Source: a virus. Taken from it: a stretch of DNA of 44,683 bases. Positions 26,993 to 43,575 of the stretch are shown in pieces. Position 1 is the first letter of the stretch, and each line of letters starts with the position of its first letter. The translations under genes were made by a program, and so were the position numbers. The stretch lies in UHGV virus genome UHGV-0176991. One strand, written 5' to 3'. The notes beneath the pieces are model-generated. The model was given only the letters and a program-made list of their open reading frames with translations. It was not told the DNA's origin and searched no databases.

Positions 26993-27405
26993 TGGGCTAC
27001 TTTGAGGACTTAACAAAAGCGTTCGATGTGCCGCTGGTAGCCTTCGGAACCGCCAACGGCATCAGGGTTGCGCTTGAAAACATCGACGCGCCGACGTCAA
27101 CCGATACACCATATCTGGCAAGTTACATGTTGCTGGCGGATACCGAGCAGGCTGATTTGTTCTTCACGGAACAACGCGCCGGTGTTTATCAGGTCGACAT
27201 TAACTACGCATCGGTGAAAGGTAGCGCGCCAATCAATAAAATGGCAGACTTACTTAACACGGCGTTTAAAGCAGGTAAGTCATTTTCTCGTAACGACATC
27301 TGCGCCGAGGTTCAATCGGTTAGCCTGGGGCCGCTGATTGTAGAAAACGGATGGGCCAAACGACCATTGTCAATTAACTTTATTGCATTCACCAAGAGGC
27401 TGTGA
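26989..27405 (+). CDS. tail terminator-like protein
   Basis: Position immediately upstream of major tail gene. Confidence 0.4.
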   Translation: MMGYFEDLTKAFDVPLVAFGTANGIRVALENIDAPTSTDTPYLASYMLLADTEQADLFFTEQRAGVYQVDINYASVKGSAPINKMADLLNTAFKAGKSFSRNDICAEVQSVSLGPLIVENGWAKRPLSINFIAFTKRL

Positions 27406-28577
27406 ATATGGCTACAACTCCTTTTAAGGGCGCGAATACCGCGCAATTCTATGTGGCAGAAGTGACCCCGGGTGTAACACCAAGTAGCCCGGTATGGTCG
27501 CCGTTGCGCAACACAGGTGGCGTTCCTGCGGTAACCCGTGATGCGCTGACCTCCAACGAACTTGACGGCAGCCGTGAAACTACGTCCATCCGCACCGGTA
27601 ACAAGCAGGTTAGCGGGGAGTACGCCATCGAACTTAGCTCCCGTAGCCAGGATGATTTCCTTGCTGGCGCTATGACTTCTACGTGGCAGGATGGCGTGAC
27701 GTTATCCGCTGTTGGTATTACAGTGGACCCGGTAGCGAAAACCTTCACCCGAGCCGCAGGAAGCTTCATTACTGACGGTGTAGAGGTTGGGGACCTTCTG
27801 TATTTTGACGCTTTAACTGGCGACAACTCTAAGCCGTTCATCGTTACCGCCGTAACAGCTACGGTTGTTACGGGCGCAGGTATCCAACACACCCTGACCG
27901 CTGAGGGCCCTATTGAGACCGACGGTAAAACCGGCGACAAGCTGGAAACCGGCAACGCATGTAAGACGTTCTCCATCCTGACGTGGTTCAAAGGCCAGTG
28001 CGGTAACCCTGACGCATACATGCTCACCAAAGGCGTGGAAATCTCTGGCTTCACCGTGGAGCAGGCGGTTAACGCTATGGTCACCGGCAGCTTCCCGTTC
28101 ATTGGCCTGAGTCAGGAGATTCTTACCGCACCACCGACAGGTTCCGACTTCTCTCAGGTCACCTTCGCCGACGAGCCGTTCTCATCTGTAGATGTGTCTG
28201 TGTTCGACGGTTCTACGCCGTTGCGTTGTGATACTCTCACTATCACCAACGATAACGGTGCTTCCGCGCAGTTCGAACTCGGCAACAGTAGCGTGGCGTT
28301 CGTGGAACGTGGCCGCGCAACTAACACCTTCTCCATCTCAGGTAAGCTGTACGACATGGCAATGATTCAGAAGTTTATCAACGAGCAGCAGGTAGAGATT
28401 AACTCTATTCTGGCGGGGGTAAATGGGGCTATGTCTTTCAGCCTAAAACGCGCAGAGCTTACGGCGGTTACACCAGAGATTGGGGGGCCTGAGTCAATCA
28501 CTCAGAGCATAGAAGGACAGTCCACAGGCAATCAATATCAATCTTCAATTGTAATACAGCGTATTAGCTACGCGTAA
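27402..28577 (+). CDS. major tail protein
   Basis: 391 aa, last structural gene before chaperone/tape-measure unit; followed by terminator. Confidence 0.55.
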   Translation: MNMATTPFKGANTAQFYVAEVTPGVTPSSPVWSPLRNTGGVPAVTRDALTSNELDGSRETTSIRTGNKQVSGEYAIELSSRSQDDFLAGAMTSTWQDGVTLSAVGITVDPVAKTFTRAAGSFITDGVEVGDLLYFDALTGDNSKPFIVTAVTATVVTGAGIQHTLTAEGPIETDGKTGDKLETGNACKTFSILTWFKGQCGNPDAYMLTKGVEISGFTVEQAVNAMVTGSFPFIGLSQEILTAPPTGSDFSQVTFADEPFSSVDVSVFDGSTPLRCDTLTITNDNGASAQFELGNSSVAFVERGRATNTFSISGKLYDMAMIQKFINEQQVEINSILAGVNGAMSFSLKRAELTAVTPEIGGPESITQSIEGQSTGNQYQSSIVIQRISYA

Positions 28578-28580
28578 GGA

Positions 28581-28603
28581 AAAGGCCCCGAAAGGGGCCT
28601 TAC
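28581..28603. terminator. GC hairpin terminator aaggcccc-gaaa-ggggcctt
   Basis: Perfect hairpin; reverse complement of the hairpin at 29111. Confidence 0.55.
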
Positions 28604-29097
28604 TATTTACCGTGGTTCTTGTGAAACCCTAAATCTCTTTCAGCAACTCTCCTCGCGGCAACTGCATCTAGTAGCGTTTTAAAGCATCCGATGTGTGTTT
28701 TTACGTTATTGTTGAATATCTGCGCATACCACAACCTTTCTTTCGCGTTCCAGTAAACCCCGGTTACTCCTGATTTATTATTACGCTGTTTTGACATATT
28801 TTTATGGTTTTCCGCATTGGACTTTTTAGCTAAGTTAAGCGGTCTATTGTTTATTCGGTTATGGTCTAGATGGTCTATTTGATCTGACGAGGTTAGCTTA
28901 TCGTTAGGATTGTTTAAGTCCCATGCTATACGGTGTGCCGCGTGCCATTTGCCTCTGAAAAATATCCTTCTATATCCGTCTCGCTGTATAGTACCTGCCT
29001 CCTCTCCAGCCTTAGCCCTCCCGGACCGTGTTACTCTGTTAAATATCCTTCCTGAAATTAAGTCGTATATGAAAAATTCATTCCAATCCATAATCAT
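28603..29097 (-). CDS. HNH homing endonuclease with AP2 DNA-binding domain
   Basis: IDHLDHNRINNRPLNL (HNH) and SGVTGVYWNAKERLWYAQIFNNNVKTHIGCFKTLLDAVAARRVAE (AP2); AT-rich relative to flanks. Confidence 0.75.
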   Translation of the reverse strand: MIMDWNEFFIYDLISGRIFNRVTRSGRAKAGEEAGTIQRDGYRRIFFRGKWHAAHRIAWDLNNPNDKLTSSDQIDHLDHNRINNRPLNLAKKSNAENHKNMSKQRNNKSGVTGVYWNAKERLWYAQIFNNNVKTHIGCFKTLLDAVAARRVAERDLGFHKNHGK

Positions 29098-29110: not shown

Positions 29111-29137
29111 AAGGCCCCTTTCGGGGCCTTTTTCTTA
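29111..29137 (+). terminator. GC hairpin aaggcccc-tttc-ggggcctt + T-run
   Basis: Identical 22-mer also at 40997. Confidence 0.5.
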
Positions 29138-29311
29138 CTCACTTTTGAATGGCATTTCATAGAAGTTAGTTAACTGGCCCCGGTTACTCCGTTCTGTCAT
29201 TTCTTTAGAGGCCTCTTCCTTACTACCGACGGCATAAATATCGACCCACTCGTCCCATTCTTCGTCGTATACTCGGATTACATATATTGTTTTCATAATA
29301 TTTTCACTCAT
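29135..29311 (-). CDS. hypothetical small protein
   Basis: Internal ATG of ORF 29135..29353. Confidence 0.35.
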   Translation of the reverse strand: MSENIMKTIYVIRVYDEEWDEWVDIYAVGSKEEASKEMTERSNRGQLTNFYEMPFKSE

Positions 29312-29534
29312 CGATATTGCTTCGGTACTCCCGTAACTTCTCCAGGCTTTCAATTGCTTCTGCTAAGTCGGTTCCCGTGTCCTTGTGGCCGCGCAAGCCC
29401 ATACACAACAGCTTCTTCAATGCGTGCTGTAGCGCCGGGTCGCGGATGTCGAAGGCACGCAGCACATCATAAACGTCTACTGTCATAGTGCTGCCGTGGG
29501 TGTTTGTCATTGTGCGGTTATATTTTGAAGTCAT
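29304..29534 (-). CDS. DUF3310-like phage protein
   Basis: TVDVYDVLRAFDIRDPALQHALKKLLCMGLRGHKD...DLAEAIESLEKL pattern recalled for that family. Confidence 0.4.
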   Translation of the reverse strand: MTSKYNRTMTNTHGSTMTVDVYDVLRAFDIRDPALQHALKKLLCMGLRGHKDTGTDLAEAIESLEKLREYRSNIDE

Positions 29535-30661
29535 CCCAGCATCTCCGGTGAAATAGTTAAACGTGCGACCTCACCGTATTCGGCGCTATAAGTAATTACA
29601 TTCGCACTGCGCCCTGACATCCACCCGCCGCGCGAGGCGTAGGCGTCTTTAGCCGCCAGGGTGCGGTGTTGCTCAACAATCATGTTACGACTTTCTACAA
29701 TCTTCTGATGGTGCAGGTGGCCTACGTGGGCGTAGCTGTAAACGCTCTCGCCGAACGCTTTACGGAACTTGGCAATCATAACCGGTTCGATAGCGTCGAA
29801 GCGCACTTTATGCCCGTGATGGAAGAACAGCGTCGTTTTGCCGTGTTGCACCATTTTGTAAACATCCGGCGACGTGTCGACGAACACCCGCGGCTCGTTG
29901 TCGTACAGCGTACTGAACATCTCAGCCAACCAAATCATTCCGCTTTCGTCGTGGTTCCCTTGCACGATAAGCAAGCGGACATTTTTATGTTTAACCAGCG
30001 CCATATCAATAACACGGCGCACCATACGAATCATGTAACGGACCAGTTTCTGATAGCGCGTGTCCGCATCAAGAACATGACCGCTTGCTGGCGTAACGGC
30101 GTCCAGACTATCGAAGTGCGCAAGGTCACCAAGCAGGTTAATAACCCCTGTTCCTGCATCCGGCGCTTTCTGAAACGCCGCATCGAACCATCGAGAGAAC
30201 AGGTCTTCTGCAATCTTCATGTCCCAGTCGTCGCCGCTCTCGTCGGCCCAGGCCAGCATACCGAGATGGAAATCAGATACCGTGTAAAGATTGAGTAGCT
30301 TATCGTCGCGTTTGGCTCGAGTCGCTTTAACAGGGGTAACTGGTGTAATCTCCGACTTCATGCCCTCGATTACGGCCTTCATTAACTCTACCTGACGTTC
30401 GGCATCGGTGTCGGTCTTAACCCATTGCAATTTAGTGTTGCCGAACTCGTCCACTAGTGACGACGTTCCTTTAATCTTGTAGCCGTCCGGTACAAGGTGA
30501 CTAACGTCACGCCCGTGGCCTACACCTTTCTTAGCCAGCTTCGCTTTACGGATACGAATAACGCGGTCGGAGATGCCATATTTACGAGCGATGTCTACAT
30601 TCTTCATCCCGGCGTTCAATTCTTCCTGTAATTGTTCGTCGGTTATTTTCTTCTGGGCCAT
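29531..30661 (-). CDS. HTH-fused calcineurin-like metallophosphoesterase (SbcD/Mre11-like motifs)
   Basis: N-terminal HTH (NVDIARKYGISDRVIRIRK); SDFHLG, GDLAHFD, GNHDE, HHGH, GHLHH metallophosphatase motifs. Confidence 0.7.
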   Translation of the reverse strand: MAQKKITDEQLQEELNAGMKNVDIARKYGISDRVIRIRKAKLAKKGVGHGRDVSHLVPDGYKIKGTSSLVDEFGNTKLQWVKTDTDAERQVELMKAVIEGMKSEITPVTPVKATRAKRDDKLLNLYTVSDFHLGMLAWADESGDDWDMKIAEDLFSRWFDAAFQKAPDAGTGVINLLGDLAHFDSLDAVTPASGHVLDADTRYQKLVRYMIRMVRRVIDMALVKHKNVRLLIVQGNHDESGMIWLAEMFSTLYDNEPRVFVDTSPDVYKMVQHGKTTLFFHHGHKVRFDAIEPVMIAKFRKAFGESVYSYAHVGHLHHQKIVESRNMIVEQHRTLAAKDAYASRGGWMSGRSANVITYSAEYGEVARLTISPEMLG

Positions 30662-30699: not shown

Positions 30700-30891
30700 T
30701 CACTTCTCTTTGACATTCGAGTTGCACGCCCAGATTAAAATAAAGACCCACGGCAGTAGAACCCAGCCAAGAAACAGATTAGCCATGAATATCGCTAATT
30801 TCGCTTTATGACCACGCATATGGGCCACTAAAAACGGGATAAAATAAACTAAAACGATAATGATTAAGAAGAACATAGTAATACCTGTCAT
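30700..30891 (-). CDS. small two-TM membrane protein, superinfection-immunity (Imm)-like
   Basis: VYFIPFLVAHMRGHKAKLAIFMANLFLGWVLLPWVFILIWA pattern. Confidence 0.5.
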   Translation of the reverse strand: MTGITMFFLIIIVLVYFIPFLVAHMRGHKAKLAIFMANLFLGWVLLPWVFILIWACNSNVKEK

Positions 30892-41340: not shown

Positions 41341-42761
41341 CTCTTACCCCGTCTCTTCATGTAATTAAGCAACTCTTCCTGAACCGATTTCTTCTCGTCT
41401 GTACGCGCGGCAACAACCTCGTCCAGCGTGTCCTTAGCAACAATGTGGTAGAGGAACACCGGTCGCTCGTGACCCGCCTGTTTCTGACGTACCGGGCCGA
41501 TGCGCTCGACAACCTGCAAATAGTGCTCGAGGTTCCAGCCTTGCGAAATAAACGCCAGATGATGCCCGCCGTCCTGTAAATTCAAACCATGCCCGGCTGA
41601 CGCAGGGTGTACGCATAATATTTCGATTTCACCTCGGTTCCACGCTTCCATCTGCTTATTACCTTTAGCGCCTTTTGCAAACGCCTGTGCCTGTGGGAAC
41701 CGCTTAAGGATGCGCTCCAGCTCGTGCTTAAACTGATAGGCGACCAGTAACGGCGCACCCTGTAACTCCTCGACAATTGACTCAAGCGCGTCCAGTTTAG
41801 TGTCATGCACTTTCTCCCAGTCTTTGGTTGCTTCTCCGTCTGGCCCTGATACATACACAGCACCGGATGCAATCTGCAAGCACTTCGACGTCTTCGCCGC
41901 CGCGTTAGCCGCTTCAACTTCTCCGCTCTCCAGTTCCGCGAATAACTTCTCCTCCATGTCTATGTACGCCTGACGTGCTTTCTTCGGCAGGTCGATCTCA
42001 ACCGGTACAATAATCGGCGCTTCACAACCAAACCACTCGGCTGGGTCGATGGTCAGACTGATGTCTTTCATCTTCTGGTGAATTTCATTATCGGCACCAG
42101 GGCGCGCGTGATATTCACGGGCCATCGCCGACTTACCTTTCTGTACCGAGTTAAACCAGCGGTCGGTGAACGCAGTGTACGATGAACCGAGGCGCTCGCC
42201 AGCGTCGATAAACCAGTTTTGACCCCACAAGTCTTTGAGGCCGTTTGGCGATGGTGTACCTGTCAGGTTGATGAAACGCTTAACCTTTCCGAACGCCACT
42301 TTGCTTAGCGCCTTAGCCCGTTTGCTTCCGCCAGAACGGCTGCGGAACGATTTCAACTTCGTGCTTTCATCGGCAACGATAACCGTAAAAGGCCAGTCGT
42401 CTTTGCCGTAGTAGTCAATCAGCCACTCGATAACTTCGTAGTTAGTGCACACCACATTAGCATCTGACTCCAGCGCTGCGATGCGGCGTTTCTCTGAACC
42501 AGTAGCGTCGACAACACGCAGACAAGGGAAGCTCCATTTCTCCTGTTCTGCGGGCCACGTACCCGATGCAACTCGTAACGGGGCGAGGATTAACACGCGG
42601 TCCTCTTCAGTAAGCTGTCCGTTGCGAAACAATCTGTTGAGCACCCACATAGTAGAGGAGGTTTTACCCCCTCCCATGCCGCACCAGATATTACAGCGCG
42701 GGTGTTTCAGCATGAACGAAGTCATGAGCTTCTGATATTCGCGCCTTTGAAACTTACTCAT
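41337..42761 (-). CDS. SNF2-family (SF2) helicase
   Basis: Walker A CGMGGGKT, DEST box VADESTKL, TGTPSPNG, SAGHGLNLQDGGH...GWNLEH. Confidence 0.75.
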   Translation of the reverse strand: MSKFQRREYQKLMTSFMLKHPRCNIWCGMGGGKTSSTMWVLNRLFRNGQLTEEDRVLILAPLRVASGTWPAEQEKWSFPCLRVVDATGSEKRRIAALESDANVVCTNYEVIEWLIDYYGKDDWPFTVIVADESTKLKSFRSRSGGSKRAKALSKVAFGKVKRFINLTGTPSPNGLKDLWGQNWFIDAGERLGSSYTAFTDRWFNSVQKGKSAMAREYHARPGADNEIHQKMKDISLTIDPAEWFGCEAPIIVPVEIDLPKKARQAYIDMEEKLFAELESGEVEAANAAAKTSKCLQIASGAVYVSGPDGEATKDWEKVHDTKLDALESIVEELQGAPLLVAYQFKHELERILKRFPQAQAFAKGAKGNKQMEAWNRGEIEILCVHPASAGHGLNLQDGGHHLAFISQGWNLEHYLQVVERIGPVRQKQAGHERPVFLYHIVAKDTLDEVVAARTDEKKSVQEELLNYMKRRGKR

Positions 42762-43575
42762 TTACTGCCCCCATGAACGCCTTTATAAATTCAGCAGCTA
42801 CTTGCGGGACGATGGCATTGCCGTAACCGCGCAATCGTCCCACTCTGGCGGGTATCCCATTAGCCAGCGGGAATGTGCCGGGTTCAACTGGCCTGAATTT
42901 CCCATCCCGGCATCCGAGCCAGTCAGTATCTGACCAAAAGCCGTTATGCGGATTGGTTGTGTTATAGCCGCCGCTTGCGCCACGTCCTGGGGTCCACCCT
43001 TCCTCTGAATTTCGGACAACGCGCCGTCCAGTGTCCGGACATTCTTCTCCCCGTCGGCGCTGCGAGGAGTGGGCCAGGTTGTGTGCGCCAAAGAACAGTC
43101 TGTCTCGCTTGTGCGGTGCGCCGACGCTACAAGCTGGGAGTACGGCAAACCCGACGGCGTAGTCTTCTCCCTCCAGGTGAGTTTGTAAATCACACATCCA
43201 CGATTTTCCAATTGCTGCCGCAACTTGTTCCCCAAAGAGGACTGGAGGTCGGCACTCGCTGATGAGGTCGAGGAATACGGGCGCGAGGTGTCTCGGGTCG
43301 AACTGTCCGAGTTGCTTTCCTGCCGTGCTAAACGGTTGGCAAGGCGGGCTTCCCGTCCAGAGAGGCGTATCTTCCGAAACTCCCGCAAGTCTGAGCGCGA
43401 GAGGCCAGCCGCCGATACCAGCGAAAAAATGACACTGGGTGAACCCGTCAAGGTCTTCTGGTCTAACTTCAGTAATGCTTCTTTCATCTACAACTCCAAA
43501 AGGTATATGACCCTGTTTTATTAGTTCACGCAGCCACGCGGCTGCACCCTTATCCCATTCGTTGTAATAGTTCAT
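42754..43575 (-). CDS. DNA (cytosine-5)-methyltransferase (motifs partly in an overlapping second frame)
   Basis: FAGIGG (I), GSPPCQPFS (IV), LFGEQV (VI-like), HKRDRLFF (VIII), GNAIVPQV (X); motif IX-like sequence lies in ORF 42798..43487. Confidence 0.65.
   Translation of the reverse strand: MNYYNEWDKGAAAWLRELIKQGHIPFGVVDERSITEVRPEDLDGFTQCHFFAGIGGWPLALRLAGVSEDTPLWTGSPPCQPFSTAGKQLGQFDPRHLAPVFLDLISECRPPVLFGEQVAAAIGKSWMCDLQTHLEGEDYAVGFAVLPACSVGAPHKRDRLFFGAHNLAHSSQRRRGEECPDTGRRVVRNSEEGWTPGRGASGGYNTTNPHNGFWSDTDWLGCRDGKFRPVEPGTFPLANGIPARVGRLRGYGNAIVPQVAAEFIKAFMGAVNE

Follow-up and report, generated by a model that had tools for sequence, protein, structure and literature searches.

The virus genome UHGV-0176991, analysed here as a single window of 44,683 nucleotides, encodes on its minus strand (29531..30661) a protein in which a helix-turn-helix (HTH) precedes a calcineurin-like metallophosphoesterase (MPE) domain, raising the question of what such a fusion, hereafter HTH-MPE, does for a phage. 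An earlier reading made from the letters alone (the sequence-only reading) had proposed two answers, a phosphodiesterase that degrades immune signalling nucleotides or a stand-alone SbcD-like nuclease. Our analysis suggests, at slightly under even odds (about 0.45), that HTH-MPE is a stand-alone DNA nuclease that probably supplies deoxyribonucleoside monophosphates (dNMPs) from host DNA; the odds favour a DNA nuclease of some kind, if action on the phage's own DNA is included. The nuclease branch of the earlier proposal is the better supported one, through the HTH, the DNA-metabolism genes that neighbour the gene in relatives and its apparent status as a core gene, and we found no support for the immune-signal branch.

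In the open reading frame (ORF) listing of the window, the gene comprises 376 codons and a stop, starts with ATG and has exactly the boundaries given by the sequence-only reading, which had named no strand; a GAGGAAG ribosome-binding site lies ahead of it. The window is a Kagunavirus-type siphophage (T1/K1-type coliphage; Guernseyvirinae), and the gene is 92% identical at the nucleotide level to those of Kagunavirus phages such as Bas74, UTEC10 and K1 phages, with 233 phage records matching in megablast and 98-99% amino-acid identity among Kagunavirus copies of the protein. The gene is therefore not new as a sequence, and its superfamily is well known: near-identical deposited copies are labelled 'metallophosphoesterase' or 'DNA repair exonuclease', and the protein matches the profile of PHROG 704, itself named 'DNA repair exonuclease', over its full length (E 1.2e-167, residues 3-375 on positions 1-389/390). 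This family name is a prediction only. Deposited labels across the family also include 'transcriptional regulator' and 'sigma70_r4_2 domain protein', and the literature that we searched (Kagunavirus, Guernseyvirinae or Drexlerviridae together with (metallo)phosphoesterase, T1 host DNA degradation, and escape mutants) held no experimental study of any PHROG 704 member, only mentions in genome announcements.

The family is widespread. A tblastn search placed it in 2,040 of 50,697 phage records (~4%), comprising Guernseyvirinae, Dhillonvirus (75% identity), T1-like Drexlerviridae (41-47%) and phages of Vibrio, Campylobacter, Sinorhizobium, Ruegeria and Flavobacterium, while an exhaustive profile-free search returned 4,632 representative clusters (50% identity) at E<=1e-3. 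Members include ST16 of phage T1 (45% identity, full length) and gp23 of Jerseyvirus Ent1 (55%), which is located in an island equivalent to that of the window; Jerseyvirus SEP1_gp23 is also counted in PHROG 704. Among Salmonella-phage records, 373 carry the HTH-MPE gene and 366 a Guernseyvirinae-type capsid gene, and these counts, together with the Ent1 copy in the same island, suggest that HTH-MPE is a conserved, vertically inherited core gene and not a variable anti-defence accessory.

The catalytic domain occupies residues 119-376 (29534..30307; this and all following features of the protein lie on the minus strand). The five metallophosphatase motifs quoted in the sequence-only reading are all present, with coordinates verified by script: motif I, SDFHLG (aa 129-134; 30260..30277), motif II, GDLAHFD (aa 178-184; 30110..30130), motif III, GNHDE (aa 235-239; 29945..29959), motif IV, HHGH (aa 281-284; 29810..29821), and motif V, GHLHH (aa 314-318; 29708..29722), matching the metal-binding signatures DxH, GDxx[DH], GNH[DE], H and GHxH of the calcineurin-like superfamily. 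When 50 relatives (33-50% identity) are aligned, D130, H132, G178, D179, T190, N236, H237, H282, G314 and H317 are invariant in all 50 sequences, and H182, D184, H281, H284 and H315 are nearly so; as judged from this alignment, the active site is intact. T190 belongs to a family-specific conserved loop, VTPASGHVLDAD (30062..30097), in which L197 and D198 are nearly invariant, making VTPASGHVLDAD a candidate substrate loop. The Pfam models Metallophos (21.6 bits, cutoff 27) and Metallophos_2 (19.2 bits, cutoff 21.5) both score below their gathering thresholds for the window protein; 13 of the 50 relatives match Pfam MPE models at E<0.01 and one, P0133, passes the gathering score. We read the sub-threshold match as the mark of a divergent subfamily, not of a non-member. 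Indeed, an AlphaFold2 model computed from the 50-sequence alignment (mean pLDDT, the predicted local distance difference test score, 92.7) shows the β-sandwich MPE fold.

The same model shows three N-terminal helices (aa 8-16, 21-28 and 32-44) that form an HTH of the sigma-70 region 4 or LuxR-GerE type (aa 8-44; 30530..30640), followed by a low-confidence linker (aa 45-60), a family-specific β-hairpin and helix module (aa 61-102; 30356..30481; strands 61-70 and 76-85, helix 87-102) in which G74 and W80 are nearly invariant among the 50 relatives, and a second linker after residue 102; the catalytic core then runs to the C-terminus with no further domain. Taken alone, the window protein matches Pfam GerE only weakly (E 0.026), and across the 50 members the matches reach 1.5e-9 for Sigma70_r4_2 and 2.4e-8 for GerE, with Fis- and transposase-type HTH models also represented. 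The HTH further matches the FixJ C-terminal domain and, weakly, phrog_836 ('late transcriptional activator'). The HTH is kept in most of the family and is present as two tandem copies in one longer sampled member, P0134; Campylobacter phage homologues lack it and retain the hairpin module and the enzyme, their alignment starting at about residue 65. Sequence comparison thus indicates that the HTH is genuine, of a DNA-binding type and the family norm, so that the domain noticed by the sequence-only reading is real and the adjective 'unusual' attached to it does not hold. The ratio of nonsynonymous to synonymous substitution rates (dN/dS) against UTEC10 and Bas74 is 0.03 overall, 0.00-0.08 across the three domains and 0.00-0.06 in the HTH, implying strong purifying selection on every part of the protein, the HTH as well. 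We conclude that the family has a distinct architecture (HTH, hairpin module and bare MPE core) that is catalogued but uncharacterised.

Structural neighbours place HTH-MPE close to both classes of enzyme that had been named for it, the SbcD/Mre11 nucleases and the class III phosphodiesterases. For the second class, the closest known enzymes were taken to be Rv0805 and CpdA, together with GpdQ. In Foldseek searches with the predicted model, Rv0805 had the best E-value (1.5e-8), followed by Mre11 (3.5e-8) and DP1 (5e-8), whereas template modelling (TM) scores were higher for DP1 and Mre11 (0.41-0.43) than for Rv0805 (0.33-0.35). The predicted fold thus leans to the nucleases, and does not settle the choice between nuclease and cyclic-nucleotide phosphodiesterase. 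Many phage proteins in collections of predicted viral structures resemble it, all of them uncharacterised.

Sequence searches returned less. Neither the single protein nor the family profile found a significant PDB match for the enzyme domain, NCBIfam and the PADLOC anti-phage defence profiles gave no match to the protein, and for the SbcD/Mre11 sequence family there was no match in NCBIfam or Pfam and only E 0.5-0.7 when the family profile was compared with the PDB. The 'SbcD-like' assignment therefore survives at the level of fold, where similarity to the Mre11/SbcD nuclease domain is present in the model, and not at that of sequence. HTH-MPE differs from Mre11/SbcD in having no capping domain and no Rad50-binding helices, ending at residue 376 with the strands of the core, and in its additional N-terminal HTH and hairpin modules; only ~190 residues align with Mre11/SbcD chains of 320-480 residues. 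No Rad50/SbcC-like gene was found among the large ORFs of the window, as the sequence-only reading had also noted, nor was one annotated in those regions of relatives that we inspected; the remaining large window ORFs were assigned as structural through synteny with annotated relatives. The archaeal PolD small subunit DP1, a 3'-5' proofreading exonuclease, shares only 11% identity and has a different N-terminal architecture, and the window ORFs screened include neither a DP2 partner nor a DNA polymerase gene. By sequence, HTH-MPE is not a member of the T5 A1, SbcD/Mre11 or PPP families, nor does it qualify as a DP1.

The most informative evidence comes from the gene neighbourhoods of relatives. 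In many Kagunaviruses, two genes usually labelled 'polynucleotide kinase' or 'kinase-phosphatase' follow the MPE gene. In UTEC10, these encode a 161-aa HAD phosphatase (phrog_415) and a 184-aa dNMP kinase (phrog_139, 1.8e-45), and phrog_415, a remote-homology cluster, also holds the 5'-dNMP phosphatase Dmp of phage T5 (8.7e-66 and 3.6e-57). The cluster carries the label 'polynucleotide kinase' even though T5 Dmp (L006, 124-858), an experimentally known 5'-dNMP phosphatase, falls within it; the HAD proteins with that label in Kagunavirus (L001, 7128-7613) and T1 (ST64; L032, 4948-5478) share phrog_415 and pass the Pfam HAD_PNKP model. The widely propagated 'PNK' labels of T1 and Kagunavirus HAD proteins may be right or may conceal nucleotidases. 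In T1, the HAD and dNMP kinase pair is ST64 and ST62 (48% and 39% identity to the UTEC10 genes), located 35 kb from ST16.

A second set of neighbourhoods comes from bacterial genomes, where a scan with a single peptide pattern returned 16 loci, a sample that is biased for this reason and mostly alphaproteobacterial. It contained 14 full-length relatives in alphaproteobacterial chromosomes (L016-L029), within large contigs of Rhizobiales, Sphingomonadales and Maricaulis. Several of these loci have flanking genes in common with Sinorhizobium phage NV1.1.1 and are presumably prophages; we accordingly rejected them as independent evidence and counted them with NV1.1.1 as one lineage. In NV1.1.1 and in 7 of the 14 loci, a phosphatase and/or a dNMP kinase lies downstream of the MPE gene on the same strand, within 0-2.8 kb. 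The phosphatase matches phrog_318, 'deoxyribonucleoside 5'-monophosphate phosphatase' (1.3e-65), and in L016 it lies only two intergenic bases beyond the MPE stop codon; its reading as an HD fold draws on the database label and a sub-threshold YfbR-like match. The kinase scores 55 bits against Pfam DNMK (cutoff 27). In Ruegeria phage V11 (Casjensviridae), the MPE gene is followed by a DNA methylase gene and then by a homologue of the phrog_318 phosphatase, and in a Vibrio phage a nucleoside-2-deoxyribosyltransferase-like gene (phrog_355; Pfam DUF7768) lies downstream. Linkage to enzymes of the dNMP pool is thus recurrent, across three phage lineages, and not universal.

DNA methyltransferase genes also occur close to the MPE gene, a few genes upstream in T1-like phages and immediately downstream in Ruegeria V11 (L003, 2432-3157; L032, 39024-39737; L034, 4600-5403); the methyltransferase of the window (42754-43575) is far from it. 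Methylation of this kind might conceivably label phage DNA as self for a phage nuclease.

Retention and duplication of the HTH, together with dNMP kinase and nucleotidase-like phosphatase neighbours in three lineages, tip our reading towards DNA. HTH-MPE would be a stand-alone, two-metal (probably Mn2+) phosphodiesterase on the nuclease side of the calcineurin-like superfamily. The HTH on its flexible linker, and perhaps the hairpin module too, would hold the enzyme on duplex DNA, where a di-metal centre formed by D130/H132, D179, N236/H237, H282 and H315/H317 may act as an exo- or endonuclease, hydrolysing phosphodiester bonds and releasing 5'-dNMPs with no need for a Rad50/SbcC ATPase. Breakdown of host (or other non-phage) DNA, the likeliest role, would then both shut down the host and supply the dNMP pool. 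For the substrate, the products and the role, we reason by analogy with A1 of phage T5, which is both required for host DNA degradation and enough on its own to cause it, and whose pre-early gene lies together with those of Dmp and the DNA-binding protein A2 (bioRxiv 10.64898/2026.04.02.716235); HTH-MPE would be a functional analogue of A1 and its neighbours A2 and Dmp, not a sequence relative of A1. Taken separately, the specific role in degrading host DNA is tentative, and we consider it somewhat improbable. A bolder formulation is about as doubtful: PHROG 704 might be the nuclease with which T1-like, Dhillonvirus and Guernseyvirinae siphophages degrade the host chromosome, a counterpart of T5 A1 that evolved independently and carries its own DNA-binding domain. 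Its activity would silence host genes, defence genes among them, feed dNMPs to the adjoining dNMP kinase and nucleotidase cassettes, and yield the methylated mononucleotides sensed by defences of the Metis and PUA-Cal-HAD type.

Several observations weigh against this reading. The predicted fold cannot separate a nuclease from a cyclic-nucleotide phosphodiesterase, given that Rv0805 has the best Foldseek E-value, and the proposed function of the family draws on sequence and context, with no assayed member in the literature searched. Linkage to dNMP enzymes is absent from the window itself and from Bas74, Jerseyvirus Ent1, Dhillonvirus, Warwickvirus and the Campylobacter phage, and elsewhere it could be no more than the shared placement of genes within a general DNA-metabolism module. 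Pfam HAD_PNKP is passed by the UTEC10 HAD protein (68.6 bits), which shows no similarity to T5 Dmp in a pairwise comparison and is thus at most a candidate dNMP phosphatase, and we downgraded the name 'Dmp' for the Kagunavirus HAD protein on these grounds. Relatives occur in presumed prophages, and wholesale destruction of host DNA is less expected of temperate phages; protection of the phage's own DNA from the nuclease is also left unexplained. Comparison of our 50-sequence family profile with a 9-sequence A1 profile from diverse phages (hhalign) aligned only motif III (GNHD...WL; 20 columns, probability 32%), and A2 is dispensable for DNA degradation by T5 (bioRxiv 10.64898/2026.04.02.716235), which makes the parallel between A2 and the fused HTH a loose one. 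Homology to the Bxb1 gp47-type MPEs of mycobacteriophages was likewise rejected, with similarity at the superfamily level only (probability 4.6%).

The rival that survives best, though we consider it unlikely, is a Rad50-independent, Mre11/DP1-like nuclease that works on the phage's own DNA, at ends, branches, replication intermediates or sites of repair. It has the same fold neighbours as a host-DNA nuclease, and several gene positions suit it: within the replication cluster, the MPE gene of T1-like phages comes after helicase and Dam methylase genes, in Campylobacter phage F356 it is preceded by genes for a Holliday-junction resolvase and a DNA ligase, and in the Vibrio phage a gene resembling a single-stranded DNA-binding protein (SSB) lies just upstream. 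The occurrence of relatives in presumed prophages also favours it, as does the reported requirement of the Bxb1 gp47 and L5 gp54 MPEs for phage DNA replication. However, the window already encodes a phrog_69 exonuclease and a gp2.5-like annealing/SSB protein for recombination, the gene in Guernseyvirinae lies away from replication genes, in a tail-module island that begins with a superinfection-immunity gene, and the recurring dNMP kinase and nucleotidase neighbours suit bulk release of nucleotides better than the processing of ends.

The HAD and kinase neighbours could also be taken to indicate end healing, in which a 2',3'-cyclic phosphodiesterase or 3'-phosphatase would join a PNKP-like phosphatase and kinase in mending RNA or DNA that host defence nucleases have cut, as the MPE domain of bacterial Pnkp does. 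The 161-176-aa HAD neighbour in Kagunavirus and T1 passes HAD_PNKP, with the 68.6 bits given above, and is labelled as similar to T4 pnk; a P-loop kinase gene follows it, and a ligase gene adjoins the MPE gene in the Campylobacter phage locus. The kinase, however, matches dNMP kinases and not polynucleotide kinases, both in phrog_139 and, for the alphaproteobacterial loci, in Pfam DNMK, the window ORFs screened yielded no ligase, none is annotated in the Kagunavirus regions that we inspected, and the PNKP-like pair is absent from the window and unlinked to the MPE gene in T1. What an HTH would do in RNA end healing is, moreover, not obvious, and we regard this explanation as quite improbable.

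Two further readings are, in our estimate, very unlikely, and equally so. In the first, the HTH would make the protein a transcription factor, one that activates late genes or modulates host RNA polymerase, with the phosphoesterase as a sensor or accessory. The Sigma70_r4_2, GerE and Fis-type matches, the weak resemblance to phrog_836 and the labels 'transcriptional regulator' and 'sigma70_r4_2 domain protein' all point this way, an interaction with RNA polymerase is reported for T5 A1 (bioRxiv 10.64898/2026.04.02.716235), and in Dhillonvirus, Drexlerviridae and Vibrio phages the gene lies at a boundary with lysis and packaging genes, its neighbours in Dhillonvirus and Drexlerviridae being lysis genes and the small terminase gene. 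Yet no metal ligand varies, constraint on the catalytic domain equals or exceeds that on the HTH, the Campylobacter phage homologues have kept the enzyme without the HTH, and where the gene lies with respect to late genes varies, the Guernseyvirinae copy being antisense inside the tail cluster. In the second, the enzyme would destroy immune signals made of cyclic (oligo)nucleotides, those of CBASS, Pycsar, Thoeris or type III CRISPR, a proposal that found no support in the PADLOC search, the gene context or the papers retrieved. A PPP-type Ser/Thr protein phosphatase like that of lambda, which the sequence-only reading had named as its refuter, shares superfamily membership only and is effectively refuted, as a scripted check found neither GDxHG nor the GDxxDRG (GDxVDRG) signature in the protein, the second of which had already been reported as missing.

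Within the window, HTH-MPE comes second in a minus-strand operon that is antisense to the tail genes and interrupts them: the major tail gene (27402-28577) lies on one side and the tail assembly chaperone gene (31069) on the other, both on the plus strand. In order, the operon comprises an Imm-type gene, HTH-MPE, a 76-aa ORF, a 53-aa ORF, a hairpin, an HNH gene and a hairpin with a T-run. The first gene (30700..30891, minus strand), preceded by an AGGAG ribosome-binding site, encodes a 63-aa membrane protein of the superinfection-immunity (Imm) type (Pfam Imm_superinfect, 51.6 bits; phrog_1039), and the same pairing of Imm-like and MPE genes is found at the same position in Bas74, UTEC10 and Jerseyvirus Ent1. 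The start of the 76-aa ORF (29304..29534, minus strand, in the ORF listing) overlaps the MPE stop, and this ORF fills the slot that the HAD phosphatase and dNMP kinase pair takes in other Kagunaviruses. Phages of Salmonella, Escherichia, Acinetobacter and other hosts carry it, 774 records in all, and it matches only the C-terminal third of two larger PHROGs, phrog_2452 and phrog_17613 ('ATPase'); in Jerseyvirus Ent1 it also lies downstream of the MPE gene, with an HNH gene in between.

The last small gene ahead of the hairpin is an acidic 53-aa ORF (MKTIYVIRVYDEEWDEW...; 29135..29296, minus strand), which has no PHROG match and appears with 72 aa in the mechanical ORF list, through an upstream TTG. 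Beyond it, the HNH endonuclease gene (28603-29097, minus strand) is flanked by two exact, inverted 20-nt GC-rich hairpin sequences, AAGGCCCCTTTCGGGGCCTT and its reverse complement (28582-28601 and 29111-29130). These look like a bidirectional terminator that was duplicated when a homing endonuclease gene inserted; Bas74 has no HNH gene at this site, and the gap between its island and the tail gene is only 30 bp. Scans for consensus promoters and terminators around the island gave chance-level results only. Other genes of the window encode a helicase-primase, the phrog_69 exonuclease, the gp2.5-like SSB/annealing protein, an SNF2-type helicase, the DNA methyltransferase and HNH endonucleases.

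That a phage MPE should be a nuclease will not surprise a specialist; the interest lies in the breadth of the family and in the membership of T1, a classical phage, alongside many therapy and biocontrol phages (Kagunavirus, Jerseyvirus, Webervirus). Classical T1 mutants that are impaired in breaking down host DNA are better transducers. If HTH-MPE does degrade host DNA, this would show how siphophages without a polymerase take over the host and gain nucleotides, would provide a second, independent case of the T5 A1 strategy, and would allow a forecast of which phages set off the defences that respond to products of genome breakdown. If it cleaves signalling nucleotides instead, it would represent a new anti-defence fold. 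In either case, a two-way guess has become a ranked set of testable hypotheses with defined residues (D130, H132 and H237) and model phages (T1, through ST16, and the BASEL phage Bas74).

Among known systems, the cluster A mycobacteriophages offer stand-alone MPEs (A10ZJ24 Gp48 and Bxb1 gp47) of ~255 aa, which, unlike HTH-MPE, have motif I at residue 10 and neither HTH nor hairpin module. A10ZJ24 Gp48 has phosphodiesterase activity, disrupts the integrity of the host genome and counters the expression of host defences (PMC12287305). The preprints on the Metis and PUA-Cal-HAD defences map escapers to denA of T-even phages and not to PHROG 704, and the 'Conserved folds' preprint concerns Mre11-Rad50 fusions, likewise not PHROG 704.

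The closest parallel is T5 A1, a predicted metallophosphatase with features of Mre11 and DP1, that is, of double-strand break repair nucleases and polymerase proofreading subunits, for which direct nuclease activity in vitro has not yet been demonstrated (bioRxiv 10.64898/2026.04.02.716235). In our tblastn search, the A1 family was found in 1,135 phage records (homologues L008-L015), among them Autographiviridae Agrobacterium phage Atu_ph02, Caulobacter jumbo phages, a Flavobacterium Elemovirus and many Vibrio phages, a wider distribution than the mainly Demerecviridae range given in the same preprint (bioRxiv 10.64898/2026.04.02.716235). The two proteins are distinct: A1 has 556 residues, with a different N-terminal half, against the 376 of HTH-MPE, it matches only phrog_1745 where HTH-MPE belongs to PHROG 704, and it is the product of a pre-early gene with Dmp nearby, whereas the window lacks the Dmp and kinase genes. 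A small protein with two transmembrane segments is encoded just upstream of A1, and its sequence is unlike that of the Imm-like protein; T5 A2 showed no resemblance to the HTH, nor T5.005 to the Imm-like protein. With motif III alone aligning, homology to A1, A2 and T5.005, as the parallel gene order might suggest, was rejected and the parallel kept as an analogy. Like A1, however, HTH-MPE is a stand-alone phage MPE with no Rad50 partner and with nucleases and proofreading subunits as structural neighbours, and where T5 encodes a separate DNA-binding protein near A1, HTH-MPE carries a fused DNA-binding domain, with a phosphatase and a dNMP kinase adjoining it in relatives. The likeness to T5 is thus one of fold class, partners and gene neighbourhood, and not of family membership.

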